This document shows positions 31,320-47,360 of a stretch of DNA of 64,000 nucleotides, one piece after another. The notes beneath the pieces were generated by a model that worked only from the letters and a program-made list of their open reading frames with translations, did not search any database and had not been told where the DNA came from. A program made the position numbers and the translations under genes. Origin of the DNA: Candidatus Lustribacter sp. GTDB taxonomy: Bacteria > Vulcanimicrobiota > Vulcanimicrobiia > Vulcanimicrobiales > Vulcanimicrobiaceae. The stretch lies in contig OZ255842.1 of the NCBI GenBank assembly GCA_965277805.1, forward strand, positions 928,001-992,000. The letters are read 5' to 3'. Position 1 is the stretch's first letter. The number at the start of each line of letters is the position of its first letter.

Positions 31320-32657
31320 ATGGTGACCGGCCTCAAGCCGGGAGCCGTCGGAGTGGTCGAGTTTTCCGACCTGCTGGCCAACGGGCAGGCCGTCGGGCGA
31401 TTCGACGGGATGGTCGTGTTCGTCGACGGACCGTTGCCGGGCGAACGCGCCCGCATCCGGTTGACCGAGGTGAAGGCGAAATACGCAGTCGGCGAAGTAC
31501 TCGAACGCGAGACGACCTCGCCCGACCGCGCCGAACCGTTCTGTCCCGTCTTCGGTGCCTGTGGCGGCTGTCAGGTGCAGCACCTCTCGTATCCGGCGCA
31601 GCTCGGGTGGAAGCACCGGATCGTCAAGGACGCGCTGCTGCGCATCGGTGGGTTTTCGGACCTCGCGGTCAACGAGCCGATCGGCATGGACGTGCCGCGC
31701 GCGTACCGCAATAAGATGGCGCTGGTCGTGGAAGACGGCGTATTCGGTTTCTACCGCGCGCGTTCGCACGAATTGGTGCCGATCGATCATTGCCCGATCG
31801 TGCTCGAACCGCTCGATGCGGCGATCGGCGGTCTGCTCGCGGCTGCGCACGCGCCGGAAACGTCGGCGGCGTTCAGCAACGTCAAGCACGTCGTGATGCG
31901 CGCCGGCTTGACGTCGCCCAACAGCGTGCTCTCGCTAACGACCGATACGAAGTCGGCCGCGATCGCCGCCGCAGCGCCGCAGATCGCCGAGCGCATCGAG
32001 GGTGTCGGCGGGATCAGCAACTCGTACGAACCGGCGAATGCGAACGCGGTGATCGGCCGCCGCATGGACTTCGTCTGGGGCAAACGCGAGATGGAAGAGA
32101 CGATCGAAAACGTTCGTTTCCGCGTCTCGCCGGCGTCCTTCTTCCAGATCAACGGTGCTATGGTGGCGTCGATCTTTCGCGCGCTCGCACCGCTGATCGC
32201 GGGCACGCCGCGCATCGTCGACCTCTATTGCGGGGCCGGGACGTTCGCGATCTACTTCGCCTCGCGCGGCGCCTCCGTCGTCGGGATCGAAGAGAACGCG
32301 TCGGCCGTAACCGAAGCGCGCGGCAACGCTCGCCTCAACAAAGTCGAAGACCGCGTGCGATTCGTGCAGGGCCGCGTCGAGGGCGCGCTCGCGAACGAAG
32401 AAGGCCGCAAGGCATTGCGTGAGGCCGAGATCGTGTTCTTGGATCCGCCGCGCAAGGGCAGCGACGAGGCGACGCTGGCCGCGCTTGCCGATGCGAAGGT
32501 GCCGGCGATTTGGTATCTCTCGTGCAATCCGGCGACCTTGGCGCGCGACTTGCGTTACCTCGCCGGCCGCGGTTACGGCATCGGTTTGGTCCAGCCGTTC
32601 GATATGTTCCCGCAAACGGGGCACGTCGAGACGCTGGTGACGCTCACTCGAAAATGA
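31320..32657 (+). CDS. rlmD: 23S rRNA (uracil-1939-C5)-methyltransferase
   Basis: TRAM domain, Fe-S 'CPVFGACGGC', 'SFFQIN', 'DLYCGAG', 'DPPRKG', 'YLSCNPATLARD', 'DMFPQTGHVE'. Confidence 0.95.
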   Translation: MVTGLKPGAVGVVEFSDLLANGQAVGRFDGMVVFVDGPLPGERARIRLTEVKAKYAVGEVLERETTSPDRAEPFCPVFGACGGCQVQHLSYPAQLGWKHRIVKDALLRIGGFSDLAVNEPIGMDVPRAYRNKMALVVEDGVFGFYRARSHELVPIDHCPIVLEPLDAAIGGLLAAAHAPETSAAFSNVKHVVMRAGLTSPNSVLSLTTDTKSAAIAAAAPQIAERIEGVGGISNSYEPANANAVIGRRMDFVWGKREMEETIENVRFRVSPASFFQINGAMVASIFRALAPLIAGTPRIVDLYCGAGTFAIYFASRGASVVGIEENASAVTEARGNARLNKVEDRVRFVQGRVEGALANEEGRKALREAEIVFLDPPRKGSDEATLAALADAKVPAIWYLSCNPATLARDLRYLAGRGYGIGLVQPFDMFPQTGHVETLVTLTRK

Positions 32658-33114
32658 CGTCGTAAGCGAACGTCATGCGCCCGCCGGGCACAAGCGGTGC
32701 CGGCGCGCTCCAGCGAATCGCATCGAATTCCGACGGCAGTGCGCGGCGCAGCGTCGTGGCGCCCCCGGGATTCGTCACGCGCACCATCGGCGCGGCGGCC
32801 CACGTTTTGCCGCCGTCGACCGAATACTCGGCGTTTGAACCGGCCGTACCGTCGACGTAGCGTTCACCGGCCGGAATCTTGACGACCGGTGAGAGGTTCG
32901 CCGCGGGGCGGTCGCCGGCGTTGTGTGCTACGATCGTGTAGCGCACGCGCTGGCCGGGTTTGGTGATACCGCTCACCGGCTTTGATACGAGATTGCCGCT
33001 TTGCGCTTCAATCAACGATGCCGACTGCACGAGTTCGACGAGCGCAGCTGCGCGTGCCGCGCAGGGAATCAACCCGAACATTAAGGCGGCGAACGCAATC
33101 GCTATCGATTTCAC
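32644..33114 (-). CDS. Secreted single DUF11-like Ig-domain protein
   Basis: Signal peptide (ARA); 'PGQRVRYTIVAHNAG', 'YSVDGG', 'IRW...LVPGGRMTFAYDV'. Confidence 0.8.
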   Translation of the reverse strand: MKSIAIAFAALMFGLIPCAARAAALVELVQSASLIEAQSGNLVSKPVSGITKPGQRVRYTIVAHNAGDRPAANLSPVVKIPAGERYVDGTAGSNAEYSVDGGKTWAAAPMVRVTNPGGATTLRRALPSEFDAIRWSAPAPLVPGGRMTFAYDVIFE

Positions 33115-33299
33115 TGCAACTTGTTTCCGCGATTAACGCTCGCGTTCTTTTGCAACGTGGCACGTGCCACCGGACTTTACGTAAACCATGCATTCGTTTG
33201 CTTTGAATAGGGTGGACAAGCGAGTGCTGGTCACCTAGCATAGCCGAGTGCCCGAATGCTCGATGCATCTCAGGCGCGCGATTCACGGAGGAGTCCTGG

Positions 33300-35723
33300 T
33301 TGACGGCGTTTTTACGTCGTCGAGTTTATGTTGTTCTCGCGATCGCTTGTATCGCGATGCTCTTCGTCTTTGCCGGCGAGACCGTCGCGCGAGCCGCGAC
33401 GGCAGCCGGCACGACGATCAACAATTCAGCGAGCGCGACCTATGTCGACCCCGCCGTTCCAGGAACGACTCTTTCAACGACGTCGAACGTCGTTACCATC
33501 CGCGTTGCGGAAGTCGCGGGCATCACCGTCGTAGCGCACGCGATCGGCGCGGTCGGCGGCGGCGTGATCGTGCCGGGCGGACAGGTGAACTTCGACTTCA
33601 CCGTCACCAACACGGGCAACAACACCAATAGCTTCTCGATTCCCAACACCGCGCTCGTCAGCGGCACGGCCGGTTCGACAATTGTCGGAACGCCGCAGAT
33701 CAGTTACGACAACGGCGTGACGTGGACGCCGCTCGCGACCGCCGCCGGAACGTTCAGCGGCAGCGGCACCACCGCGCGTCTGCAGACGACGCCGATCGCG
33801 CCCAACGGCACGGTGCTCGTACGCATCGTCACGAGCGTTCCGGCCGGTGCGACGCAGTCGTCGACGATCAACGTACAGCTCGGCAATACGGGGCCGAACG
33901 ACAACAGCGCCGCGACGCAAAATCAGAATTACAACGCGGGCGACGCGGGCAACGTCTTCACGACCAACAACGCCGGGACGCCGCCGCCGGGGCCGCCGCT
34001 CAACGGTCAGCGCGAAGCGGCCGCGCTCTCGTCCACGACCGTCACCGCGCGGCCGCAGGCGTTCGCCCAGATCCTCAAGAGCGGCGCGATCGCAACCGCC
34101 AATATCAACCCGCAACTGAGCACGGTCACCTACTCGCTCACGCTCAACGTGCTCGCGAGCTACCCGAGCGCCGGGCCGGCCTATATCGCCGCGCCGTTGA
34201 CCGGAACGCCGATCTTGCTCAATGGTGCCGCCGCTACGCGCGTGCTCGTTTCCGACGTCGTGCCGGCGCAAACGGTGCTGAGCGCGGTCGCGACGCCGCC
34301 GCCGGGCTGGACCGTCATCTACTCGACCGACATCACCAGCGTTGCGAACGTCGCATCGTTCACGAGCACCGCGCCGCCGAGTTTGAGTACGGTGAAACGC
34401 ATCGGCTGGATCGCGCCCGGACCGGTTCCGCTCGGCGCGTCGGTCACGGGATTCAACTTCACCGTTCTCGCGAGCGGCGTTCCGTCCAACGCGTCGAGCA
34501 CGCTGCTCAACTTGGCGCAAGTGTTCGGTCAATCGCAGGGCGATGCGACGAATCTGCTGGTCTACGATCAGTCCGGCGATCAGGAACCGAGCCAATTCAC
34601 GGCCGGTAACGGCACGCCCGGTTCGAGCACGCCGCTCGGCACGGCGCCGTCGAACGGCGTTGCCCCGGCATCCGGACCCAACGATCCGGGCGCGAATACC
34701 GGCGGCGCCGGCGGCGACAACAACGTCGTCCCGCTCAACCCGCAGACCTCGCTCGTCAACGGACCCAACGGCGTGCCGGGCGCGGTCGGTTCCGACGGCA
34801 CGACGACGACCGACGTCACGTATCAGTCGGTGACGGTGCCGCAGGGTTTGGCGCCGGCATCCGGGCTGCCTAGCCCGCTCCAATCGACGTTCACCAATAG
34901 CGTCGGCAACCAGGGCACGGTGCCGCTCCAAAACGTGACGCTCGTGCCGCAATCACCGGCCGTCGCAAACGCGCTGCCCAACGGCACGACGGCGGCGATC
35001 TCGTGGGGCGGTCAGTCCGTTCCGGCGCTCTACACCTACACGGCATCCGGCGGCTGGGTGCTCACGAGCGGAACCGCGATCTCGATACCCACGATCGCGG
35101 CGAGCGGCGTACAGAACTACACCGTCGTCGTCACGCTGCCGGCGGGCACCGCGCAATCGACCAACGGCGGCGTCGCAGCCGGCGGATTCGGGATCCCGAT
35201 CCTGGCTGCGTCGACCACCGGCTTTGGTGCGAGCTCGAACCTCACGACCGATACCGTCTTCACCGGCTTCGTCAAGCTCACGAAACTCGCGCAGGTGTTC
35301 AACGCCGACGGCTCGCCGTGCGACGTCGCGCCGGTGGCCGCACCGAATCCGGCGTGCGTCGTCGCCGGTAATTTCGTGCAATACACGATCCAGTACTCGA
35401 ACATCATCCCGGCGGCGAGCGGTAGCGGCAGTTCCGCGCCGAGCGCGCTGCGGATGGTGATCACCGAGGACGGCGCCGCGGCTCCCAACACGTTCGCGAC
35501 GCTGCTCGACGGCGTGGTCGTGACCAGTCACGTCAAGGGTTCTGCGACGGATACGCTCGCGGCTAACGTCATTACGTTCTTCAACGCGGTTGGGCAGAAC
35601 GTCGGCGACATCGCGGGCAGCGGCACCGCGACGGGCGACGTGACGAAGTACATCGACACGTTCGCCGCGCCGCTCGCGCCGGGCGCAACCGGCACGTTCA
35701 CCTTCAAGCGGAAGATCAACTGA
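33300..35723 (+). CDS. Large secreted DUF11-type beta-sandwich protein (putative major fibre subunit)
   Basis: SD GGAGGAG, signal peptide, N-terminal 'AGTTINNSASATY', 'FTVTNTGN', C-terminal 'LAPGATGTFTFKRKIN'. Confidence 0.8.
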   Translation: MTAFLRRRVYVVLAIACIAMLFVFAGETVARAATAAGTTINNSASATYVDPAVPGTTLSTTSNVVTIRVAEVAGITVVAHAIGAVGGGVIVPGGQVNFDFTVTNTGNNTNSFSIPNTALVSGTAGSTIVGTPQISYDNGVTWTPLATAAGTFSGSGTTARLQTTPIAPNGTVLVRIVTSVPAGATQSSTINVQLGNTGPNDNSAATQNQNYNAGDAGNVFTTNNAGTPPPGPPLNGQREAAALSSTTVTARPQAFAQILKSGAIATANINPQLSTVTYSLTLNVLASYPSAGPAYIAAPLTGTPILLNGAAATRVLVSDVVPAQTVLSAVATPPPGWTVIYSTDITSVANVASFTSTAPPSLSTVKRIGWIAPGPVPLGASVTGFNFTVLASGVPSNASSTLLNLAQVFGQSQGDATNLLVYDQSGDQEPSQFTAGNGTPGSSTPLGTAPSNGVAPASGPNDPGANTGGAGGDNNVVPLNPQTSLVNGPNGVPGAVGSDGTTTTDVTYQSVTVPQGLAPASGLPSPLQSTFTNSVGNQGTVPLQNVTLVPQSPAVANALPNGTTAAISWGGQSVPALYTYTASGGWVLTSGTAISIPTIAASGVQNYTVVVTLPAGTAQSTNGGVAAGGFGIPILAASTTGFGASSNLTTDTVFTGFVKLTKLAQVFNADGSPCDVAPVAAPNPACVVAGNFVQYTIQYSNIIPAASGSGSSAPSALRMVITEDGAAAPNTFATLLDGVVVTSHVKGSATDTLAANVITFFNAVGQNVGDIAGSGTATGDVTKYIDTFAAPLAPGATGTFTFKRKIN

Positions 35724-37159
35724 TGGCGCGCATCGTTCGCAGCGCGCTGGCGCTGATCGCCGCTCTCACGCTCGCAACGGCCGCACCGTTCGTGGTCTCG
35801 GCCGCGCCGACGCTGGTCAATGCCGCTTCGGCTTCGTACGATCCCGGCAACGGGACGCTCGTGCAAGTGCAGTCGCCGAGCACGCTGACGCAGGCGAACC
35901 CCTCGCTGACCGTCACCTCCGCGATCACCGCGTGTCAGGGCGGACCGCTCACCGATTACACCGGCTGGAGCATCGGGCTCTACAACGCCGATGCGCTGGG
36001 CAATCCCACCACGGCGCTCGCGCTGACGCGCACACAGCTGCCGGTGTTGCCGGCGGTTCCGCTGCCGGCCGGCATCGCGCCGAACAACCAGAACCTCGAC
36101 CCGTTCACGGTGACGAACGGTAACGTCGGGATCTACGCGTTCCTGCTCGACACTGCGACCGGCGAAACGGCACCGCAAACGTTCGTCTTGATCACCAACG
36201 CACCGGCGACGTCGTCGCTGCCGAAGCGCCGCGTCAAGATCGTGCTCGGCGCGACCACCGGCGCAAATGTGGCGTATACCGCGACCGCGCTCGACAATAT
36301 GGCCGTCAATGCCCTCTCGCCGGCGCAAACGGTCACCGGCACGTTCCCCATCGTGCGCACGAGCGCGAACGGAAACTTCGCGGTCTTCCAGCTCGCCGTG
36401 AGCGAGTGCCCGAGCAACGCCATCGGCATCACCAAGACGGCGAACGTCACGACGGCGCAGGTCGGCGATACGGTCGTCTATTCGGTTGCGGTCACGAACC
36501 AGTCGCTGAGCGCGATCACGGCGCCGACGATCACCGACATTCTGCCGCTCGGTTTCGTCTACGTCAACGGCTCCGTCCGCGCCGGCCTTGCGAATTCGGC
36601 CGTGCCGGCGACCGCGACCGTCGCTGGCGGCCGTCTCGTGATGACGACCACGGCCTCGATTCCCGCGGCGTCGGTGCTGACGTTCGTCTACGCGACGGTG
36701 CTCTCACCCGACGCTCTCAAGGGCACGGGGCAGAACGTCGCCGTCGCCGACGGCACGCTCGGCTCATCACCCGTGCACGGCGGGCCCGCGACGTTCACGC
36801 TCAAGGTCGATCCCGGCTTGTTGAGCGACTGCGGCACGATCATCGGCCGCGTGTACGTCGACAAGCCGCTGCAGGGCATCGACCGGCGTCAACAGCCCGG
36901 CGTTCCGGATGCGGTCGTGTTCTTCGACGACGGCGTGCGGGTGAAGACCGACAAGAACGGGCTCTATCACTATCCGGGCTGCGCGCATCCGGGCTGGCGC
37001 ACGGCGGCGCTCGATCTCACCAGCGTGCCGGGGATGACGCTCGCGCCGAACATCTACATCGCGGCGCGCAACGGCCAATCGCAGTGGGCACATCTCGAGC
37101 CGAGCGGTTTGGTGAAGATCAACTTCGCCGTCGTGCCGGCCAAGGGCGCCGCGAAGTGA
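35723..37159 (+). CDS. Secreted DUF11 + SdrD-B-like domain protein
   Basis: 'ITKTANVTTAQVGDTVVYSVAVTN...ITDILPLGFVYV'; 'IIGRVYVD...GVPDAVVFFDDG...TDKNGLY'. Confidence 0.8.
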   Translation: MARIVRSALALIAALTLATAAPFVVSAAPTLVNAASASYDPGNGTLVQVQSPSTLTQANPSLTVTSAITACQGGPLTDYTGWSIGLYNADALGNPTTALALTRTQLPVLPAVPLPAGIAPNNQNLDPFTVTNGNVGIYAFLLDTATGETAPQTFVLITNAPATSSLPKRRVKIVLGATTGANVAYTATALDNMAVNALSPAQTVTGTFPIVRTSANGNFAVFQLAVSECPSNAIGITKTANVTTAQVGDTVVYSVAVTNQSLSAITAPTITDILPLGFVYVNGSVRAGLANSAVPATATVAGGRLVMTTTASIPAASVLTFVYATVLSPDALKGTGQNVAVADGTLGSSPVHGGPATFTLKVDPGLLSDCGTIIGRVYVDKPLQGIDRRQQPGVPDAVVFFDDGVRVKTDKNGLYHYPGCAHPGWRTAALDLTSVPGMTLAPNIYIAARNGQSQWAHLEPSGLVKINFAVVPAKGAAK

Positions 37160-40100
37160 CGCCGTTTACGCGGCGCAGCCTCGCGCTGATTGCCATGCTT
37201 TCGCTCGCGCCCGTGGCGTTCGCGCGCGCCGCGGACAACCCGCCGGCGGCCGGTGTCGCGCTGGTTGCGGCCGCACCGCTGATTGTCGAACCGGCCACCG
37301 GTTCCGTGTTGGACAAACCGTCGACCGACGTCGTCGTGCGATCGGCGCCCGGCGATAAGGTGCAGTTGATGGTCAACGGCGTCGCCGTCAAAGACGATCA
37401 GATCGGTGTCCTCGGACGTGCCGATGACGGCAGCCAGGTTGAAACGTGGATCGGCGTGTCGCTCGATTCCGGCCGCAACGTCATCAGCGCGCGCGTCGAT
37501 CGCGGCACGGGCGCGTCCGCTCCGGTCGAGAGCATCGTGAACGTTCGCGGCAGTGCGAAGAAGCTGGTGCTGAAGGCGAGCCGTATGTCGGCGCCGGCTG
37601 ACGGCCGCACGAACATCTCGATCAGCGGTCAGCTGATGGACGGCAACAACCTGCTCGCCGCGCGCGACGGCATGGTGCGCCTGGCCGCGACCGCGGGCGA
37701 CTTCGTCGGCGATAGCGCGCAACCCGAAATGCCGGGCTTCTACGTGCGAGCCCATGACGGGCAATTCAACGCCGTCCTGCGCGCGCCGCTGCATTCGGGC
37801 ACGGCCCACATCACGGCGTCGATGGCGAACCTCACGGCGACGCTCGACCTCGAGATGACGACGGAACTGCGCCCGAGCATCGCGACCGGCGTAGTCGACC
37901 TGCGCTTCGGCGCGCGTCAGTCGGACTTCTACAAAAGCATCTCGACGTTCTTAGACGGCGATCCGAGTTTCAAACCGGAACTGCAGACGTCTGTCTTTGC
38001 CACCGGGAAGGTCGGCAACTACCTGCTCACAGTGGCCGGCGACAACCTTTATCCGATCAACCCGCCGTGCGACGGCCGGATCGGCGTCACCACGTACGAA
38101 CAACAAGCCGCCTGCACCCCGCAGTACCCGATCTACGGCGATGAGTCGACGTCGACGCGTCTCGCGCAGTCTAGCGACAACGTGTTCTTCCGGCTCGAGC
38201 GCGAGCGGACGTACGCGATGTGGGGCGACTACGACACCAAAGAGTGGGCGTCGGCCACGCAGCTCTATTCGGCAACGCAGATGAACCTGCACGGCGCCAA
38301 GCTCAACTACGAGCCCGGCAAACTCGAAATCGCGAGCTTCTACGCCAACAACATCCAGGCGTTCCAGCGCGATTCGATCGCACCCGACGGCACGAGCGGC
38401 TACTACTACCTCTCGCACCAGCTGGTCGTTCCGGGCAGTGAAACCGTGTTCGTCGAGGCGCATCTCTTCAATCAGCCCGGCGTCATCGAAACGGTCACGC
38501 CCTACGTGCGCGGCATCGGCTACGACATCGACTACGATAACGGCCAGATCTTGTTCCACAACCCGATCGTGCGCACCGACATCGACCCGCAAGGCCGTGT
38601 GATCGTCAACGTGATCGTTGCGACGTACGAATACGACGGCGGTCAAGGTTCGGGCGACATGGTAGGTGGGCGCGTGCGCTACCGTTCGTTCATTCCGCAA
38701 AACGATACGCAGACGCCGTTCTCGATCGGCGCATCGGTCGTGCACGAGAACATGGGCGACGCGTCGTTCACGCTCAACGGCGTCGACGCCGGCGCGCCGC
38801 TCGGCAAGATCGGAAAGCTGATCGCAGAGTACGCGCAATCGAGTAACGACGCGAGCGCGTCGGGCGCGGTCACCGGCAATGCCTATCGCCTCGAGGCCGC
38901 ACTGCAGTCCGGGAAGACGACCGGTAACGCGTACTACCGCACCACGACCGCCGGGTTCTCGAACAACGCGACCACGAGCTTCACGCCCGGCGAAACGCAG
39001 CAAGGCCTGAACTTCGATACGCCGGTAGCCCATCACACGAGCGCGTTCCTCACTTATGATCGCGAACGCGAGAACGGCATCGCGCCGGAAGTCCTCACCG
39101 ATCCGGAAGATCTGCTGCTGCCCGGCAACGCGCAGGTTCCGGGCGCGCCGGTCAACACCGACTACATGACGCTCGGCGGCGGCGTACGGCAACTGATCGG
39201 CACGGGCAAGCTTTCGCTCGAATATGACGTGCACGAGCAGACCGACTTCAACGAGCCGCTGGTCGACACCAATTCCTCGCAGCTCATCGCGCGCTACTTG
39301 CAGCCGTTCGGCAAACGCTTCACCTTCTTGGCCGAAGACGACATCAATCTGCGCTCGCAGGTCGATCCCTTGTATCCCAGCCGCTTCGCGCTCGGCCTCG
39401 AGTACAGCGTGGCTCCGGGCGTTGCCGTCGCCGCGACCCATCAATACATGAAAGACTTGCAGAGCGGACCGCAGACCTTCAACACGATCGAAGCCATGGC
39501 CGATGACAAACTCGACGCGAACACGTCGTTCACCGGGCGCTATGCGATTCTCGGCGGCCTCGACGGGTACGATGCGACGAGCGCCTTCGGCCTCAAGCAT
39601 CTGTTCAGGATCGCGAAGGGCGTGAGCGCGAGCGCGGCCTACGAATACCTCAACGGCAGCGTCTTCGATCTCACGCCGTCCGGCATGCAGTTCGCACAGC
39701 CCTACGCGGTCGGCCAGCAAGGTACGACGGCGCTCGGGATCAGCGGCGGTACGAGCCTCAGCCTCAGCACGACCTATGCCGGCAGCCAGTACCTCAAGGG
39801 CTCGGCACGCTACGAGCACCGCGTCTCCGACCAGGGTTCGAATACGACGTACAGTTTCGGCGGCGCGGGCAAGCTCTCCGACGCGGTGTCGCTCTTGGCG
39901 GGCTTCGATTCCGCCGGCGGCGCCAATCAAACCTTGGGCGGGCTCGCGGCCAGTTCCGATTTCCGCGTTGGTGCCGCCTATCGCAATCCATACACAGATA
40001 CGACGAACGCGCTCTTGCGCTACGAGATCGACGTCAATCCGGGCATCACGCCGGCCACATTGCTGCAAGGCGCGGGCACCTGGACGAAAGACAATACGCT

Positions 40101-40557
40101 CGCGCTTGAAGTGCTGCACGACCCCTCGCAACGGCTCGAACTCTACGGCAAGTTCGCCTTCCGCGCAACGACGGCGTATCTGTCGGGTGATTTCTCCAAT
40201 GCCACGTACACGTCGCTTGCGCAGGCGCGCGCTACGTACCGCGTCGGACGGCGCTGGGATACGACGTTAGAATTGCGCTGGATCGCGCAGAACGTCACCT
40301 ACTACAGCGCCATCGGTGAAGTGGCCGAAGCCGGTTACGCGTTCGGTGACGATCTGCGCGGCGCGATCGGCTGGTCGTTTGGCCAGACCAACGATCCGGC
40401 GTTCTTCGGCTCAAACGGCCGCGGCGGCATCTACTTCGACGTCACCGCGCGTATTCACGAACTGTGGCCGGGCTTCGGCCTGCAGAAGGCGCCGCTCGCC
40501 GATCTCACCGCTACCGGCGTTCCCGCCGCAGCCGCCGTACCTGTGGGGCGCAAGTGA
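37156..40557 (+). CDS. Large putative outer-membrane beta-barrel protein with N-terminal Ig-like (invasin-type) domains
   Basis: GTG start overlapping the upstream stop; signal peptide; 'PADGRT' Ig-like motif; 'YPIYGDES'; long run of amphipathic beta-strands ending 'GGIYFDVTAR'. Confidence 0.72.
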   Translation: MTPFTRRSLALIAMLSLAPVAFARAADNPPAAGVALVAAAPLIVEPATGSVLDKPSTDVVVRSAPGDKVQLMVNGVAVKDDQIGVLGRADDGSQVETWIGVSLDSGRNVISARVDRGTGASAPVESIVNVRGSAKKLVLKASRMSAPADGRTNISISGQLMDGNNLLAARDGMVRLAATAGDFVGDSAQPEMPGFYVRAHDGQFNAVLRAPLHSGTAHITASMANLTATLDLEMTTELRPSIATGVVDLRFGARQSDFYKSISTFLDGDPSFKPELQTSVFATGKVGNYLLTVAGDNLYPINPPCDGRIGVTTYEQQAACTPQYPIYGDESTSTRLAQSSDNVFFRLERERTYAMWGDYDTKEWASATQLYSATQMNLHGAKLNYEPGKLEIASFYANNIQAFQRDSIAPDGTSGYYYLSHQLVVPGSETVFVEAHLFNQPGVIETVTPYVRGIGYDIDYDNGQILFHNPIVRTDIDPQGRVIVNVIVATYEYDGGQGSGDMVGGRVRYRSFIPQNDTQTPFSIGASVVHENMGDASFTLNGVDAGAPLGKIGKLIAEYAQSSNDASASGAVTGNAYRLEAALQSGKTTGNAYYRTTTAGFSNNATTSFTPGETQQGLNFDTPVAHHTSAFLTYDRERENGIAPEVLTDPEDLLLPGNAQVPGAPVNTDYMTLGGGVRQLIGTGKLSLEYDVHEQTDFNEPLVDTNSSQLIARYLQPFGKRFTFLAEDDINLRSQVDPLYPSRFALGLEYSVAPGVAVAATHQYMKDLQSGPQTFNTIEAMADDKLDANTSFTGRYAILGGLDGYDATSAFGLKHLFRIAKGVSASAAYEYLNGSVFDLTPSGMQFAQPYAVGQQGTTALGISGGTSLSLSTTYAGSQYLKGSARYEHRVSDQGSNTTYSFGGAGKLSDAVSLLAGFDSAGGANQTLGGLAASSDFRVGAAYRNPYTDTTNALLRYEIDVNPGITPATLLQGAGTWTKDNTLALEVLHDPSQRLELYGKFAFRATTAYLSGDFSNATYTSLAQARATYRVGRRWDTTLELRWIAQNVTYYSAIGEVAEAGYAFGDDLRGAIGWSFGQTNDPAFFGSNGRGGIYFDVTARIHELWPGFGLQKAPLADLTATGVPAAAAVPVGRK

Positions 40558-43500
40558 AACTCCGCCGCGTTTTCACGGCCTTACTCGTGCTCGTCCTTTT
40601 CGGCTCGATGCTGCAACGGCCGCTACCCGCGCTCGCCGCACCGCCGTTGCTCGACGTGATCACGCTCGATCCGCTCGCTGCGGGCTCGAGCGGGCAAACG
40701 GGCACAGTTCCGTTTGATGCGACCTCGTTCAACCCGGGCGGTGGAACAAATCCGGGCACCGATAGTTCGGCGACCGATCACATCGTGCGCACCAACGACA
40801 CGATCGCTTACGATTTTCAGTACAGCGTCAACAGCGCGCCCGGACTCAACATCACGCTGACCAGCGTCCTTGGCCAGTACCTCGGCGCCGACGTCGCTGA
40901 CTGGACGACCATCCCGGCCGGATGCGGCGCCGGTTCATCGATCAGCGGCGACGGGCAAACGCTCGTGTGCGACATCGGGGCCGTTGCACAGGGCAGCGCG
41001 CAAGACGTGATCGCTTCGGCGAAGATCCGCGTCACCGCACCCAACGGCGCGACGATCGCGCCGAGCATCACGGTCGATGACCCGGGCAACGTTGGCACGG
41101 TTCCCGTGACCAACGCCGGCTATTGGATCAACCAGTCGACGCCGTCGACGACGACGATGGACACGATCACGTCGGTCGGCAAGTACAATGCGATGAAGCA
41201 GTCAGCGGTCGCGAAGCCCGTCATCGAGCCGTACACCTACTTCGGTGACGGCGGCGTGCAAGGGTACTACATCGATTTCCCGGTCCTCGTTCGCGAGGGC
41301 GACGGTACGGCCGGCGGCAAGTACGGCATCGCGCCGGCGGGCTCGCCGATCACGATCACCGATACCCTCTCGCCCGGCCTCAACTCGACCCTTGCCCTGA
41401 GCAATGCGTGCGGCATCAACGGCAGCGGGATCACGATCCAGAACGAGCCCTACGGCGCGATCGGCGTCACCGGAAGCGCCACCTCCGCCAACAGCGTCGT
41501 GAATTCTGGAACGATCACGTGCACGCAGGCCGGCGGTGCCGGAACCCCCGTGACGATTACGATCACCGGTGCCAACACCAGCGGCTCATCGTTCCCGGTG
41601 AACAAGGCCGGCAGCGCGGGCATCGACAACCTCACCTACGTCGTCGCGGGCTACCTGCGCCTCTGGGTTCCCGACACGACCGGAAACCTCGGCGCGACCG
41701 GCAACGTGCAAGGTTTCTCCGACACGTATACGGGCATCGACCCGGGCGAACCGGACGAGCTTCCGGCCAATCTCACCGCAACGACGAACCTGACGGCCGA
41801 AGGCCCGGCGGGCGCGAGCGGTAACGGCGGCAAGGCATTCTTCCAAACGACGAGCGAGAACGGGTTCCCGTTCAACAACTCCAACGGACCGGCGCTGACC
41901 GCGGGCAGCCCGCTCGTCTCGGTGTTCGAATTCAACAACACCTCGAGCGCGTCGACGGGCTCGGTGACGATCAATAGTCTCACCGCGTGCGACACGATCG
42001 ACACGGCCCACATCTTGGTCACGCCGTTCAGCGGAGCGGCCGGATTTGCGACCGACTCGCTGTGGGGCGGCGCGGTTCACCTTTCGAACCTGAACGGGGG
42101 ATCGTTCACCGATGGTTCGCCGCCGGCCGGGTTCACCGTTTCTTACGGCGATTCGAGCACCGCGGCCGATTGCACGACCGGAACGTTCAAGGCGTCGGCA
42201 AGCGATGCATCGTTCACCGCGCTCAACCCGATCGCGCGCGTGAAGTTCACGATGACGTCGCTCGCTCCCGGGCAAGAGTTGCGCGTGCAGCTGTCTCAGA
42301 CCGTCAACTCGGGTCTGGCTGCCGGTACGATCGTACACAATACCGTAACGGCAACCGGGACGGCGAGCACCGGCGGGCCGGCGTTCTCGCGCACGGCGTC
42401 GACCACCGGTCAGATCTTCACGACGAACCTCGGCATCACGAAGTACCTCTTCAAAAACGTTGCGGGCGCCGGGGTGTTCAATGCGAACGGCACGCAACCA
42501 CCGGGCGCGAGCGGCCGTTCGTCGGGCACCGCCGGTCTGGTGGATACCAATCAGGAGATCGTCGCGGCGCTCGACGATGACGGATCGCAAGGCACGCTGC
42601 CGTCGAGCAACGTCGTAACGTGCGACATCGTGCCGCCGAACATGTCGATCAAAGACTTCGATCTGGTCACGAACACGACGCCGGTAACGGGACCGGTCAC
42701 GTTCCTGACGGTCAGCGGAACCGCGCCGTCGTCGGAACTCGTGGAATATTCCACGGTGCCGACCTTCGGCGGCGACTCGTGTACCGATGCGGGCGGCGGC
42801 TGGACGTCGACGGAGCCTTCACCGCGCAGCGCGATCACCCGCGTTCGCGTGACCTACACGTTGCCGGCCGAAACGCGCGAACGTATCTTCGTGAACTTCC
42901 AAGTCGCATCGTCCGCGGCTCCGAACACGCTGATCACCAACAATACCGTCACGACCGTCGGCGGCGTGAACCTGCAAACTGCAACGCAGAGCGTAACGGT
43001 TGAACCCGAAACGGTCTCAGTAACGAAGACCGGCCCGAGCGGCTCGGTGACGGCGGGTACGCCCGCATCGTTCACGATCCAAGGATACGTGCAGGGCCCG
43101 GGATCGCCGCAATCGGGTACGGTGACGGTCGTCGATACGCTGCCCGTCGGCCTCACCTACGTGCCGAGCTCGACCGTGCTCACGAACCCGCCCGCGCCGA
43201 CCACCTGGCAGAGCGGCAGCGATAATGCCACGCCGGTGATCACGATGAGCGGACCGAATCAAGTCTTGACCTGGACGCTCGGCACCGCGACCGCCAATCC
43301 GGGCGTGTTCATCCAATTGCCGACGATCACGTTCTCGACCAATACCGACATTTCACTGAGCGGCGGAACGCTGATGAACTCGGCCACGATCGTCGATACG
43401 GCTGACGGCAATCCCGGCGGGCCTAATCACACGGCCACCGCGTCGGTGCTGGTCTCCAATCCGGGCGCGTTCCATATTTCGAAGACGACGACGACGCCGC

Positions 43501-44426
43501 AAATCAACACCGGCGGCACGATCACGTGGCAGTTGAACTACGCCAACACGGGAACGACCGCGGCGACATCGACCGACTTCATCGACATCCTGCCCTACTC
43601 GGGCGACACGCGCGGCAGCAGCTTCCACGGAACGATCACGCTCGTGTCGGCAGCGGGCACCAACGGCGAAACGCTGCAGTACACGAAGCAGCCGCCAGCG
43701 CAAATCAACGAGGATCCGGGCTGCACGTCCAACGGCGGCGTCGTGACGCCGCCGACCGGTGGCTGTCAGAGCTTCAGCGCCGCGACCTGGTGCCCGGCGC
43801 TGAGCGGCGGCGCGTGTCCGTCAACGCTCGCGCAAGTGACGGCGATTCGGATCGGCGGCGGCGCGTTGCCGGGACCGTCCGGAACGCGCACGATCACCGT
43901 GCAGGCGAGCACGAGCGGTAACGTCTTTACCGATGTGTACTGGAACACGTTCGGCGCCCGAACGAGCATCTTGACCCTCGGCGTGCATTCGCCGCCGGTC
44001 GAGACGATCGTGCCGACGCCGCCGACGGCATTCCTCACGCTCGTGAAGTCGTGCCTCGCGCCGCCGACCTGCATCACCGCATCCCAAGCGCCGGGAACCG
44101 ACATTACCTACGGCATCTCCGCGACCAACACCGGCGGCCACGCATCGGCGCAAGTGGTGATCACCGATCCGATGCCGCCGAACATGGACTTCAAACTCGG
44201 CACGGCGTCGGCCACGTTCCCGGGCGGCGTGACGATCGTGATCTCCTATAGTTCCGATCCGGCATTGTCCACGTTCACGTACGCGCCGGTCAGCGGCGGC
44301 GGCGGCGCGGCGACGGGATACGATCGCAACGTCACCGGCGTGCGCTGGACGATGACGGCCGGGCAACTTGCTGCCGTCGGCGTGAACGATTCCGGCAGCG
44401 TCCAATTCACGGCGGCAATTCGATGA
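40554..44426 (+). CDS. Large secreted multi-DUF11 adhesin-like protein
   Basis: Signal peptide (ALA); tandem 'K-T...G....(Y/F)T...N.G...D.LP' repeats, paired Cys, T/S/G-rich; ends 'SGSVQFTAAIR'. Confidence 0.82.
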   Translation: MKLRRVFTALLVLVLFGSMLQRPLPALAAPPLLDVITLDPLAAGSSGQTGTVPFDATSFNPGGGTNPGTDSSATDHIVRTNDTIAYDFQYSVNSAPGLNITLTSVLGQYLGADVADWTTIPAGCGAGSSISGDGQTLVCDIGAVAQGSAQDVIASAKIRVTAPNGATIAPSITVDDPGNVGTVPVTNAGYWINQSTPSTTTMDTITSVGKYNAMKQSAVAKPVIEPYTYFGDGGVQGYYIDFPVLVREGDGTAGGKYGIAPAGSPITITDTLSPGLNSTLALSNACGINGSGITIQNEPYGAIGVTGSATSANSVVNSGTITCTQAGGAGTPVTITITGANTSGSSFPVNKAGSAGIDNLTYVVAGYLRLWVPDTTGNLGATGNVQGFSDTYTGIDPGEPDELPANLTATTNLTAEGPAGASGNGGKAFFQTTSENGFPFNNSNGPALTAGSPLVSVFEFNNTSSASTGSVTINSLTACDTIDTAHILVTPFSGAAGFATDSLWGGAVHLSNLNGGSFTDGSPPAGFTVSYGDSSTAADCTTGTFKASASDASFTALNPIARVKFTMTSLAPGQELRVQLSQTVNSGLAAGTIVHNTVTATGTASTGGPAFSRTASTTGQIFTTNLGITKYLFKNVAGAGVFNANGTQPPGASGRSSGTAGLVDTNQEIVAALDDDGSQGTLPSSNVVTCDIVPPNMSIKDFDLVTNTTPVTGPVTFLTVSGTAPSSELVEYSTVPTFGGDSCTDAGGGWTSTEPSPRSAITRVRVTYTLPAETRERIFVNFQVASSAAPNTLITNNTVTTVGGVNLQTATQSVTVEPETVSVTKTGPSGSVTAGTPASFTIQGYVQGPGSPQSGTVTVVDTLPVGLTYVPSSTVLTNPPAPTTWQSGSDNATPVITMSGPNQVLTWTLGTATANPGVFIQLPTITFSTNTDISLSGGTLMNSATIVDTADGNPGGPNHTATASVLVSNPGAFHISKTTTTPQINTGGTITWQLNYANTGTTAATSTDFIDILPYSGDTRGSSFHGTITLVSAAGTNGETLQYTKQPPAQINEDPGCTSNGGVVTPPTGGCQSFSAATWCPALSGGACPSTLAQVTAIRIGGGALPGPSGTRTITVQASTSGNVFTDVYWNTFGARTSILTLGVHSPPVETIVPTPPTAFLTLVKSCLAPPTCITASQAPGTDITYGISATNTGGHASAQVVITDPMPPNMDFKLGTASATFPGGVTIVISYSSDPALSTFTYAPVSGGGGAATGYDRNVTGVRWTMTAGQLAAVGVNDSGSVQFTAAIR

Positions 44427-45478
44427 ATCGCATACAACGGGTCTTGATCGTTCTCGGCGCAAGCGCCGCGCTCGCAGCGTGCGGCGGCGGCGGTAACACG
44501 TCGTCGTTCGGCGGCACGACGTTCACCGTCTCCGGATCGGGCGGCCCGGCCCCGGCGCCGACCGCGACGCCGATTCCCGGACCGGTCACGGTGACCGGAA
44601 CGATAACGCAAATTACGAACACCAGCTTTGGCCCCACCGCACCCCAGTTGCCGCTCGGCGGTGCGGTGGTCGTCATCGGTCCGGCGCTCGTGCCCGGTGC
44701 AACGCCGCCGCCGGTTCCGCCGGCCGGCGACGTGCAGGTAACGACGTCGGCGAACGGCACGTACAGCGCGACGCTGGCGTCCGGTCCCGCACCCTCGTTG
44801 TCCGCGCAAGCCTCGTACGATTTTCCCTTGAACAATCTCGCGGGCGTGACGCCGCCGGCAAGCGGTTATTACATCAGCGTGTTCGCAGCGGGCAGCGACG
44901 GCAAAACTGCCGGCGCGCCGCTGCCGGTGCACGCATTTTCGGGACTCGGTGCCGGCAACGTTCTCGCGACGCAACGCGTGACGACGGCGACGCCCGATGA
45001 AGCGAACTTCCTCGCGCTCGTCAACACCGATCGCACGACGGCGAACCCGCTCGCGCTGCCGATGATCTTCGATGAGTACGCGGAGGAAGCAGCGCGCCTG
45101 CACGCCACCGACGAAGCGACGAACAACTACTACTGCCACTACGATACGCAGAACCGCGGCCCCGGTTCGCGCTATCTTGCGCTGCTGGCCCTCGGGCAAG
45201 ACAACGAGAACATCGGCAAGACCTCCGGCACCGATGCGGTTGGTTCGTACACCGTCACCGAAGCCGCGTTCATGGCGGAATCTTCGACGAACGGCGGCCA
45301 CTACACGAACATCATCGATTCGACGCACGCTTGGGCCGGTGTCTCGACGGTCGTGGCCGGCCCCTCCGCGCAGTACGTCGACCAGGAATTCGTGTCGCCG
45401 CACGGCACCGACCCCTACGTCTACCCGAATTTCACCGGCTCCGCGTGCCCGCCCGGCGTGGTCCCGAACAACTCGTAG
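44423..45478 (+). CDS. Lipoprotein with a C-terminal CAP (SCP-like) domain
   Basis: Lipobox 'ALAAC'; 'AARLHATD...YYCH', 'ENIG', 'GHYTNII'. Confidence 0.78.
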   Translation: MNRIQRVLIVLGASAALAACGGGGNTSSFGGTTFTVSGSGGPAPAPTATPIPGPVTVTGTITQITNTSFGPTAPQLPLGGAVVVIGPALVPGATPPPVPPAGDVQVTTSANGTYSATLASGPAPSLSAQASYDFPLNNLAGVTPPASGYYISVFAAGSDGKTAGAPLPVHAFSGLGAGNVLATQRVTTATPDEANFLALVNTDRTTANPLALPMIFDEYAEEAARLHATDEATNNYYCHYDTQNRGPGSRYLALLALGQDNENIGKTSGTDAVGSYTVTEAAFMAESSTNGGHYTNIIDSTHAWAGVSTVVAGPSAQYVDQEFVSPHGTDPYVYPNFTGSACPPGVVPNNS

Positions 45479-45528: not shown

Positions 45529-45825
45529 ATGGCCACGGAACGGATCGATGTGCGCGGGGTCGCGCGTTTGGCGCGGCTCGCGCTCAGTGACGAAGAGATC
45601 GAGCGCTACGGCGCGCAGCTCGAGGACCTGCTCAAGCACGTCGACGACCTCAAGCAACTGGACACCTCCGACGTCGCGGCGACCGCGCAGGTTATCGAGT
45701 CGCGCAACGTCATGCGTCCCGATGTCCTCGCGCCGTGCCTCGATCACGATGCCGTGATGGCCGGCGCGCCGCAGCCGCAGCACGGCTTTTTTCGCGTCCC
45801 GAAGATCATCGCCGAGGCCGGTTGA
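45529..45825 (+). CDS. gatC: Asp/Glu-tRNA amidotransferase subunit C
   Basis: 'VARLARLAL', 'NVMRPD', 'FFRVPKII'. Confidence 0.96.
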   Translation: MATERIDVRGVARLARLALSDEEIERYGAQLEDLLKHVDDLKQLDTSDVAATAQVIESRNVMRPDVLAPCLDHDAVMAGAPQPQHGFFRVPKIIAEAG

Positions 45826-47318
45826 TGGATCCGGTTCGCGCTTCCGCCCGCGAGATCGCGCGCGCGGTCAATGCCCGTGAAATTTCGGCGGCCGAAATCG
45901 CCGAGACGATGATCCCGCACGTCGCCTCCGTCGACGAGCATCTCGGCGCGTACCTGACGCTCACGCCCGAGCTGATGCGCGAAAGCGCACGCAAGGTCGA
46001 CGCGCGCATCGCGGCTGGCGAATCGCTGCCGCTGGCCGGGGTGCCCGCCGCGATCAAAGACAACATGTGCCTGCTCGGCACGCGCACCACGTGCGCCTCG
46101 AAAATTCTCGAGCAGTGGATCGCGCCGTACACCGGCACGGCCGTTGCGCGTCTGCTCGACGCGGGTGCCTTGCCGATCGGTAAGACGAACATGGATGAGT
46201 TCGCGATGGGCAGCTCGGGTGAAAACTCGGCGCTCGGCACGACGAAAAACCCGTACGACTTCGACCGCGTTCCCGGCGGCTCGTCGGCCGGCAGTGCGGC
46301 AGCCGTGGGCGGCTACGTGGCGACGATTTCCACCGGCAGCGATACCGGCGGTTCGATTCGCGAACCGGCGGCGTTCTGCAACGTCGTCGGGTTCAAGCCG
46401 ACCTACGGGCGCGTTTCGCGCTACGGATTGATCGCGTTTGCCTCGAGCCTGGATCAGATCGGGCCGTTCGCGCGCACCGTGGAAGATGCGGCGCTGACGT
46501 ACGACGCAATGGGCGGTCACGACGCGATGGACGCGACCAGCGTCGACATGCCGTTCGAGACGACCGCCGGCCACCTGCGCGAAGATCTGCGCGGCGTGCG
46601 CGTCGGCATCGTCAAGGAATTCGCCACCTCCGATCTCGCACCGGACGTTGCCGCAGCGTACGAAGCGGCCTATGCCGATCTCGCAAAGCTCGGCGCCGAA
46701 CTGGTCGAGGTCGAGTTGCCGACGGCCAAGTACGGCCTCTCGACGTACTATCTCATCGCGCCGGCCGAATGCTCGTCGAACCTCGCGCGCTTCGACGGCG
46801 TGCGCTACGGCCTGCGCGTCGACGGCGCCGACGTCGGCGAGATGTATGAGAAGACGCGCGCCGCGGGCTTCGGCCCCGAGGTGAAGCGCCGGATCCTCAT
46901 CGGCACCTATGCGCTTTCGAGCGGCTACTACGACGCGTACTACGTCAAGGCGCAGAAAGCACGCACGCGCATCGCCGACGATTTTCGGCGCGCGTTCGCA
47001 AAGTGCGACGTCATCGCATCGCCCGCTGCGTCCTCACCCGCGTTCACCTTCAACGCCAAGAGCGATCCCTACAGCATGTACCTGATGGACTATTACACGA
47101 TCCCCGTCTCACTCGCCGGCCTGCCGTCGCTCTCGATCCCATGTGGCTCCGCACTGCCCGAAGGCGGCTCGCGCCCGATGCCGCTCGGCCTGCAACTCGC
47201 GAGCCCGCTCTTCACCGAACGCGCCCTCCTCGGCTACGCCCACGCCTACGAACGCGCGACGCAACACGCGACGAAGTTGACCGTATGTCATCCCGAGCTT
47301 GTCGAGGGATCGCGATAA
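45825..47318 (+). CDS. gatA: Asp/Glu-tRNA amidotransferase subunit A
   Basis: Amidase signature 'GKTNMDEFAMGSS', 'PGGSSAGSAAAV', 'GSDTGGSIR', 'SSNLARFDGVRYG'. Confidence 0.98.
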   Translation: MDPVRASAREIARAVNAREISAAEIAETMIPHVASVDEHLGAYLTLTPELMRESARKVDARIAAGESLPLAGVPAAIKDNMCLLGTRTTCASKILEQWIAPYTGTAVARLLDAGALPIGKTNMDEFAMGSSGENSALGTTKNPYDFDRVPGGSSAGSAAAVGGYVATISTGSDTGGSIREPAAFCNVVGFKPTYGRVSRYGLIAFASSLDQIGPFARTVEDAALTYDAMGGHDAMDATSVDMPFETTAGHLREDLRGVRVGIVKEFATSDLAPDVAAAYEAAYADLAKLGAELVEVELPTAKYGLSTYYLIAPAECSSNLARFDGVRYGLRVDGADVGEMYEKTRAAGFGPEVKRRILIGTYALSSGYYDAYYVKAQKARTRIADDFRRAFAKCDVIASPAASSPAFTFNAKSDPYSMYLMDYYTIPVSLAGLPSLSIPCGSALPEGGSRPMPLGLQLASPLFTERALLGYAHAYERATQHATKLTVCHPELVEGSR

Positions 47319-47360
47319 TGGCGACGACTGAGGCGGCCCTTCGACAAGCTCAGGGTGACA
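47286..47360. repeat. Inverted pair of REP-like repeats (copies 2 and 3) spanning the gatA stop and gatB start
   Basis: TGTCATCCCGAGCTTGTCGAGGGA ... CCTTCGACAAGCTCAGGGTGACA. Confidence 0.85.

Follow-up and report, generated by a model that had tools for sequence, protein, structure and literature searches.

In the genome of a soil bacterium not yet in culture, six adjacent genes all seem to encode exported proteins; what might these build at the cell surface? The genes lie in a stretch of 64,000 nucleotides from Candidatus Lustribacter sp. (contig OZ255842.1, positions 928,001 to 992,000), which we call the window and in whose numbering positions are given unless another locus is named, and we refer to them as A to F in the order in which they occur (Table 1). 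An initial annotation, made from the letters of the sequence, had suggested that they form an undescribed surface-fibre system whose subunits complete one another head to tail and are served by a dedicated outer-membrane barrel. The computational analysis reported here leads us to consider it probable, on balance, that the locus is a surface-fibre kit based on a split isopeptide domain of the CLIPPER/DUF11 type (CnaA-like), in which one protein would supply the strands that another one lacks.

Complete and split copies of an isopeptide domain

DUF11 has recently been renamed CLIPPER, and the main text of PMC12617251 describes a crystal structure of such a domain (9IFR) in which an isopeptide bond joins Lys715 to Asn806 within the chain and Asp748 is the catalyst. 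The same paper defines DUF7925 (PF25546) as a CnaA-like isopeptide domain, the seed of which is a Nostoc protein. Domains of this same type, with a triad of a Lys, an acid and an Asn, are present as complete copies in C, in E and in the middle of B.

The family searches gave the following picture. DUF11 (PF01345) was matched above its Pfam cut-off of 24.6 bits by C (35.3 bits) and by E (32.5 bits, in three stretches), and below it by A (22.7 bits, expectation value (E) 1.3e-4), while TIGR01451, with a cut-off of 24 bits, was matched by C (48.3 bits) and by A (25.8 bits, 8e-6). E also gave a match to RrgB_K2N_iso_D2 (2e-11). The sole Pfam match of B is DUF7925, over residues 256-432 (9.4e-45, 153.1 bits against a cut-off of 26.5), and its triad is well kept among the B homologues (K260 in 102, D319 in 111 and N404 in 110 of the 119 aligned rows). 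The description of the subunits as DUF11 proteins is thus upheld by Pfam for C and E and not for B, which has no Pfam DUF11 match.

The complete internal repeats with Lys, Asp and Asn motifs that had been noted in C and E are indeed there. The triad of C consists of K238, D272 and N338 and that of E of K825, D861 and N942, and E has a second complete domain with K977 and D1011, followed by a WN motif. Residues 230-294 of C align to 9IFR (E 9e-4), with K238, in the motif ITKT, at the position assigned to Lys715 and D272, in the motif ITDILP, at that assigned to Asp748; the numbering of the structure was inferred by taking the number in the paper as the chain index plus 705. N338 is 24 residues away from the end of its domain, and for Asn806 in the solved domain the distance is 22. 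Because of this alignment and the similar spacing from Asn to domain end, the closing segment of the repeats, G.(I/L).N.A, is predicted to be the strand that bears the bond-forming Asn, to be followed by one further strand.

It is this closing segment that is missing from the ends of two proteins. B ends in ...GTFTFKRKIN and E in ...SVQFTAAIR, and their terminal domains (that of E covering approximately residues 1158-1290) keep the Lys and the acid, K662 and E723 in B and K1165 and D1205 in E, and are without the Asn strand, so that the final two strands are absent. The initial annotation had claimed that three proteins stop just before the closing segment. For B and E this is correct, and A is a candidate for it. 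Conversely, mature B begins, from residue 33, with ATAAGTTINNSASATY...SNVVTIRV, which corresponds to the missing hairpin with its Asn (...TINNSASATY), and mature C begins with APTLVNAASASY..., which likewise corresponds to the missing hairpin with its Asn (...TLVNAASASY). That B and C open with an isolated closing segment right after the signal peptide had also been noticed before, and we found this start to be conserved across homologues. With the terminal copy divided between chains in this way, the bond that is internal in CLIPPER/DUF11 domains would here join two proteins.

Apart from its donor hairpin (approximately residues 28-60, with Asn33), C is composed of one complete DUF11 domain and a conserved C-terminal domain. 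In E, an N-terminal part of about 790 residues with no recognised fold precedes the two complete DUF11-type domains and the acceptor. No sequence match to E was found in the PDB, and a search of the ESM Atlas with its residues 30-820 returned solely unnamed or DUF11-bearing clusters, which give no lead on the ligand of the putative tip.

Profiles of A, of the terminal domain of B and of the complete domain of C were compared with hhalign, and the conserved core alone was aligned, the ends being left unplaced. The probabilities were 15% for A with B, 93% over 44 columns for A with C and 37% for B with C. In this last, weak alignment E723 of B falls on the catalytic Asp of the DUF11 domain of C.

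Conservation of the donor and acceptor ends

We found 182 homologues of B, which is a single-copy gene in the genome of the window. The alignment used here has 119 rows, namely the B of the window and 118 of the 120 homologues listed, two short fragments having been left out. On the donor hairpin N42 is kept in 117 of the 119 rows, and A44, S62 and N63 are each kept in all of them (119/119). In the acceptor domain K662 is found in 117 rows and E723 in 116, and G725 and R804 are each invariant (119/119). Moreover, 110 of the 119 homologues terminate at the very last residue of the B of the window.

The donor end of C is conserved as well, since all nine cyanobacterial C proteins begin with [IL]xNxA[ST][YF][ST]Y and the donor motif is also present in the three distant C-like proteins (3/3). 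Each of the five B-type proteins compared (the B of the window and far-diverged relatives) has the Lys, the motif ITE[ND]G with its acid and the donor Asn, and two distant E-type proteins retain the Lys and the Asp.

A particular case is the B protein of Symplocastrum (L006, 5377-7164). It has 595 amino acids, matches residues 1-250 and 484-806 of the B of the window and is without the DUF7925 domain, so it appears as a shorter shaft subunit that keeps both ends.

Predicted joint between two B chains

Two fragments of B, residues 640-807 and residues 33-252, were modelled as separate chains, each with the 119-row alignment. Three runs gave scores of 0.89, 0.89 and 0.88 for the complex, against 0.00 for the highest-scoring of three controls; the runs had at least 96% of their contacts in common, and the predicted local distance difference test (pLDDT) value of the partner was at least 91. 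For the mark used, the pass rate is 58 of 80 among solved complexes and 2 of 110 among mismatched pairs, a calibration that is rough in this case since our own alignment was used. As the profile of B has 0 matches in the PDB, a pass that stems from the memory of a solved complex is unlikely.

The predicted interface brings the acceptor strands 656-664 and 714-725 (together with 729-732) against the donor strands 38-52 and 60-70. Its contacts include 660:44, 721:46, 730:42 and 662:62, and the antiparallel register of 660:44 would place K662 beside N42. Strand complementation in trans, which had been put forward for this locus and which was examined here on the B homodimer, therefore finds support in the predicted insertion of the hairpin into the C-terminal domain of another chain. 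We consider it likely that the subunits are joined head to tail by complementation of this kind.

Whether such a joint is also locked by a bond is a separate question. The complementation might be purely non-covalent, the Lys, the Glu and the Asn being kept for folding or hydrogen bonding only. The docking model for the two B chains requires no bond, and both A and the cyanobacterial E-like terminal domains lack an obvious Lys. In addition, according to the part of the BsaA report cited here (bioRxiv 10.1101/2024.11.04.621531), oligomers of that protein are stable in sodium dodecyl sulphate (SDS) even when the bond is missing. What speaks for chemistry at the joint is that the triad is near-invariant (116-117 of the 119 rows), is retained in far-diverged clusters and matches in position the residues that form the bond in the CLIPPER structure. 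A joint without any bond is, in our opinion, unlikely, if still to be reckoned with. Since the missing segment is the one that carries the isopeptide Asn, the joint is probably covalent, and we favour an isopeptide lock with some reserve.

Proposed assembly

In the assembly that we propose, the subunits would be exported by Sec and the N-terminal hairpin of each one would complete the C-terminal domain of the subunit preceding it. The order of the chain would then be E (acceptor only), a number of copies of B (donor and acceptor) and C (donor only). After docking, Lys662, Asn42 and Glu723 of B would make up a triad as in the unsplit domains, and an isopeptide bond formed spontaneously between the two chains would probably lock the joint with no need of a sortase, like a natural SpyTag/SpyCatcher, while the complete domains would add internal cross-links along the chain. 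D may act as the platform, offering either an usher-like passage to the growing fibre or an anchor to C. We thus infer that E is the tip, B the shaft and C the base of the fibre, and in the same manner its location at the surface and the roles given to D, A and F.

Protein D as a predicted large outer-membrane barrel

Among the 485 homologues of D that were found, many are named 'TonB-dependent receptor' or 'invasin domain 3-containing'. D itself has no Pfam match to Plug or TonB_dep_Rec at E <=0.1 and none in NCBIfam, and its lone Pfam match at that threshold is Invasin_D3 (0.01, below the cut-off). The name 'TonB-dependent receptor' is therefore probably wrong for these homologues.

An AlphaFold model of D was built from an 81-row alignment. 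It consists of two immunoglobulin (Ig)-like domains (approximately residues 42-235) followed by 46 strand elements between residues 241 and 1100, the last 32 of which, from residue 482, are consecutive and have 10-18 residues each. Foldseek matched the model to Deinococcus SlpA, MtrB, FimD, PapC, LptD and SprA, all with a probability of 1.00, and the Ig part was matched by Intimin D00-D0. The claim that gene D encodes a beta-barrel agrees with this model, which is mostly strand over 241-1100 and has outer-membrane barrels as its best PDB folds, at low template modelling (TM) scores. The genome also encodes Omp85/BamA (94 bits), so that an outer membrane is to be expected. We read D as a putative, very large outer-membrane barrel that belongs to no described family.

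That D is the dedicated platform of the fibre seems to us fairly likely. Its service as the actual channel is a more doubtful matter, which we regard as possible rather than probable.

A different product could also be imagined for the same kit, namely that the subunits link as proposed and form a tether or mesh of the envelope, such as an outer-membrane-linked layer or a sheath, with D as its membrane anchor. The barrel of Deinococcus SlpA, which anchors the envelope, is indeed one of the best fold matches of D. Yet the single donor and single acceptor of each shaft subunit would give a linear chain and not a mesh, and the 790-residue N-terminal part of E is typical of adhesins, which makes an envelope layer quite unlikely compared with the surface fibre that we propose.

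Some features of the C-terminus of D deserve mention. The protein ends in a non-aromatic residue (window 40440-40557), unlike many outer-membrane barrels. The motif WPGFGLQK is conserved after the last strand, with G1106, F1107, G1108 and Q1110 near-invariant, and precedes a tail of low confidence; distant relatives of D have FGWG at this position.

Synteny and distribution of the gene set

A search with D led to 11 loci, and A, B, C and D were matched in every one of them (11/11). The two loci closest to the window by identity of protein D (L001, 98%, and L002, 92%, both from uncultured Eremiobacterota/Vulcanimicrobiota) are also the only ones of the 11 in which E and F were matched. The other nine are cyanobacterial and uniform in gene order (B, A, C, D), with the four genes on the same strand. 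A homologous locus is in fact common in culturable cyanobacteria, for instance Nostoc, Nodularia and Chroococcidiopsis.

The gene downstream of D encodes, in six of the nine cyanobacterial loci, a protein of 449-1278 amino acids ending in ...SYGF[IV]RFRxx[VK][KN], an end that is strand-like and, again, without the Asn strand. The same position is occupied by other genes in L007 and L008 and has no open reading frame (ORF) of more than 300 amino acids in L010. The gene that follows D in L007 (10689-12881; Leptolyngbyaceae) ends, as judged by eye, in an OmpA-like peptidoglycan-binding sequence, where an E-type end would be usual.

The profile of D was also run against 201 Eremiobacterota genomes, 41 of which were matched at 1e-10, strongly only in G000 and G103. 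Five places with weaker matches were cut out, and four of them (L018-L021; Table 1) turned out to contain a diverged form of this kit. There the B-type proteins start with AGTxIxNxAxATY and end in ...[FV]x[FV]xVx[IV]K, the C-type proteins end in DVNFAxxP and the barrels in VDR[IL][FL]GWG, and small A-type as well as E-type proteins are present. A frame of 1739 residues in L021 might have been taken for a fusion of C and D, and this was ruled out because its first ~640 residues are arginine-rich and out-of-frame. The synteny survey that the initial annotation had called for thus gave a positive result, the set A-B-C-D being kept in the 11 loci found with D and in four far-diverged loci of Eremiobacterota. 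Of the outcomes that the annotation had named as refuting its proposal, none was observed.

This conservation bears on a further explanation, that the proteins of the locus are fibrillar adhesins or envelope proteins unconnected with one another, B closing in cis and D being a porin or receptor that just happens to be encoded in the operon. It would be in keeping with the 'TonB-dependent receptor' name given at NCBI to many homologues of D, and the modelling of B as the fragments 640-807 and 33-252 leaves room for closure in cis. Nevertheless, C has a donor and no acceptor and E has an acceptor and no donor, so that self-closure is insufficient as an explanation. Furthermore D has no match to Plug or TonB_dep_Rec, the stop and start codons of the genes overlap, and B, A, C and D have stayed together in the 11 loci and the four distant ones. 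We consider unconnected proteins of this kind very unlikely and retain the fibre kit as our reading.

For a quick FastTree phylogeny of D, 33 of the 81 rows of the alignment were used and the other 48 omitted; 4 distant rows were added, and the tree was rooted on three distant paralogues. The clade of the window, which has 8 rows with G103 among them, is the sister group of a cyanobacterial clade of 26 rows (support 99), near the base of which a row from Gloeobacterales is found. A recent transfer from crown cyanobacteria is disfavoured, given that the D clade of the window is not nested within the cyanobacterial one.

Proteins A and F

Small secreted DUF11 proteins form a large family of which A is a member, and a search limited by length gave 508 homologues at E <=1e-5. 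When its profile was run against 1.84 billion representatives, the results were dominated by giant DUF11-repeat proteins, with four of the size of A listed. A is present in every locus found, and in all nine cyanobacterial loci it is placed between B and C. The AlphaFold model of A (pLDDT 85) has 10 strands, the N-terminal one being long, and its comparison with the PDB indicates an Ig-like sandwich of CnaA type (AgI/II 3qe5, Z 8.7). At the position of the first-strand Lys, K is found in eight and R in one of the nine cyanobacterial copies, and Q, H or no residue in the three of Eremiobacterota; the position of the Asp is occupied by Q, K, R or D. As to its function, A might cap the chain or serve as a minimal tip, might bind donor hairpins reversibly in the periplasm, or might be a complete domain that does something else.

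F has a CAP/YkwD domain (PR-1-like, 4.5e-5) and a lipobox, LAAC, recognised by eye, and its start overlaps the stop of E. As it was found in only two of the 11 loci, F is outside the conserved core.

Points that weigh against the fibre proposal

Several observations count against the reading given above. All the evidence on the locus is computational, and a lookup of RNA data for window positions 33000-41000 found none. The joint that was modelled, B with B, is one of the three proposed, and its model yields contacts and not coordinates, so that the closeness of K662 and N42 is deduced from the strand register. The terminal domain of B is weakly DUF11-like, as seen in its hhalign value with C, and has no DUF11 match in Pfam.

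Similar caution applies to the other proteins. The model of D is of middling confidence, with a mean pLDDT of 73.3 and a predicted TM (pTM) score of 0.56, and its fold matches all have TM scores of at most 0.38 (0.18-0.38 for FimD and PapC). A has no conserved pair of Lys and acid, and even with the superposition of its model (residues 21-156) on 9IFR (chain positions 18-109; Z 7.4) its truncation is conjectural. In the six cyanobacterial E-like proteins the first-strand Lys was not seen by eye, and some joints may be without the bond. Finally, the proposal does not say what would stop the subunits from polymerising too early, in the periplasm.

Comparison with known systems

The absence of classic pilus machinery, which had been stated for the locus itself, can now be extended to the genome in the case of the sortase, the usher and PapD_N. 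The genome, 95% complete by the estimate of the tool, has no match to the sortase family (PF04203), to Usher (PF00577; positive in the Escherichia coli control) or to PapD_N (PF00345; positive in the E. coli and Deinococcus radiodurans controls). In the locus no match to the Usher, PapD_N or PapC families was found, D having none to Usher at E <=0.1, and the motif LPxTG (searched as LP.TG) is present in none of the six proteins (0/6).

The closest likeness in architecture is with the chaperone-usher pili (Fim, Pap, Csu). In these too the Ig-like fold of a subunit is made whole by the N-terminal donor of the one that comes after it, and an acceptor-only tip, a donor-only terminator and an operon-encoded outer-membrane barrel are found, FimD and PapC being among the fold matches of D. 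However, the donor of the present locus has two strands, its joint is probably covalent and no periplasmic chaperone was identified. The barrel region of D, with approximately 860 residues, is also larger than a whole usher (the FimD chain has 778).

With the sortase pili the locus shares the organisation in tip, shaft and base and covalent chains with domains of CnaA or CnaB type, as reflected in the match of E to the RrgB isopeptide model. In contrast to them, it lies in a genome with no sortase match and in a host that has an outer membrane, as judged from Omp85, and its proteins are without LPxTG.

SpyTag/SpyCatcher is an engineered split of the CnaB2 domain, in which the tag, a strand that carries the Asp, docks into the remaining domain and an isopeptide bond forms spontaneously. 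The likeness is that a strand with one reactive residue enters a domain that holds the other residue and the catalytic acid. The pair described here differs from it in being natural and CnaA-like, in having a two-strand hairpin with an Asn as the donor, and in serving polymerisation. As for natural isopeptide domains, the bonds described in the part of PMC12617251 cited here are all intramolecular, and the main text of that paper has no occurrence of 'split', 'SpyCatcher' or 'Nostoc'.

Donor-strand fibres with isopeptide bonds have been described in other hosts. For BsaA of Clostridium perfringens, of the TasA family, the part of the report cited here (bioRxiv 10.1101/2024.11.04.621531) describes donor-strand exchange and proposes, with mutational support, an Asn-Lys lock with the residues N35, K74 and E56. 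As in our proposal, an N-terminal strand enters the neighbouring subunit and an Asn-Lys isopeptide catalysed by a Glu locks it. The archaeal threads of Sulfolobus acidocaldarius are described, in the cited part of PMC9715654, as donor-strand fibres reinforced by isopeptide bonds. Both have a fold unrelated to that of the present subunits and occur in Gram-positive or archaeal hosts, where there is neither an outer membrane nor a barrel that acts as a partner. The CT pilus of cyanobacteria is a different system, based on a small glycosylated pilin according to the portion of PMC12397347 cited here.

In the full-text literature searched, outside of which lie most subscription journals and the supplements, no description was found of a split CLIPPER domain or of this operon. 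Taken at its widest, the proposal is that of a new pilus pathway for cells with two membranes, in which a natural split isopeptide domain would let the subunits polymerise unaided into a chain covalent from tip to base, to be passed or held by a single-chain barrel of ~40 strands in place of the usher, without chaperone, sortase or ATPase, the whole being old and widespread (Cyanobacteria, Eremiobacterota). We put this wider proposal forward tentatively, as falling just short of what we would call probable.

If it were true, a further route to Gram-negative-type surface fibres would stand beside the chaperone-usher, type IV, type V, curli and conjugative pili, and would be the first among these with a covalent backbone that it makes by itself. 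Nature would then be using the split-isopeptide trick that was invented by protein engineers, and a function could be given to hundreds of entries now named 'TonB-dependent receptor', 'beta strand repeat-containing protein' or 'hypothetical'. Since cyanobacteria with a homologous locus can be cultured, the idea is open to experiment, and in these organisms surface fibres matter for adhesion, mats and symbiosis. Moreover the donor and acceptor pairs could become orthogonal tags for protein ligation.

Gene organisation and genomic context

The genome to which the window belongs comprises 5.53 Mb in a single contig. Its G+C content is about 65% across the window, and that of the locus is the same as that of its surroundings. 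All six ORFs are present at the positions first reported (Table 1). Gene A is divergent from the other five across the intervening spacer, and these five are coupled by overlapping stop and start codons, TGATG at 35723, GTGA at 37156 and at 40554, and ATGA at 44423, as had been described. The export signals attributed to all six proteins correspond to what look, by eye, like Sec signal peptides. A sigma-70-like match at 33213-33241 falls in the spacer between A and B; it is weak, with 3 matches in the region against 1.8 expected.

Table 1. Positions of the six genes, of the sub-features of gene B and of the diverged kits (window numbering, except for L018-L021, which have their own).
Feature	Position	Strand	Description
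A	32644..33114	-	156 amino acids, secreted single DUF11-like domain
Spacer between A and B	33115..33299		185 bases, divergent, presumed promoter region
B	33300..35723	+	807 amino acids, putative shaft subunit, donor and acceptor
B residues 33-72	33396..33515	+	N-terminal donor hairpin; candidate isopeptide Asn42, codon 33423-33425
B residues 256-432	34065..34595	+	DUF7925 domain, CnaA-like; internal triad K260/D319/N404
B residues 645-807	35232..35720	+	C-terminal acceptor domain; K662 codon 35283-35285, E723 codon 35466-35468
C	35723..37159	+	478 amino acids, putative base subunit; donor, without acceptor
D	37156..40557	+	1133 amino acids, predicted outer-membrane protein, Ig-like domains and barrel-type region
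E	40554..44426	+	1290 amino acids, putative tip protein; acceptor, without donor
F	44423..45478	+	351 amino acids, lipoprotein-like, CAP/YkwD domain
Diverged kit L018	4652-12649
Diverged kit L019	417-10750	-
Diverged kit L020	3261-14545
Diverged kit L021	4202-15995

Housekeeping genes flank the locus on both sides. Upstream, between window positions 28222 and 31029, they encode FlhA, which belongs to flagellar export, a PilZ-domain protein and an RNA methyltransferase. On the downstream side GatC, GatA and GatB are encoded within window positions 45529-48838.

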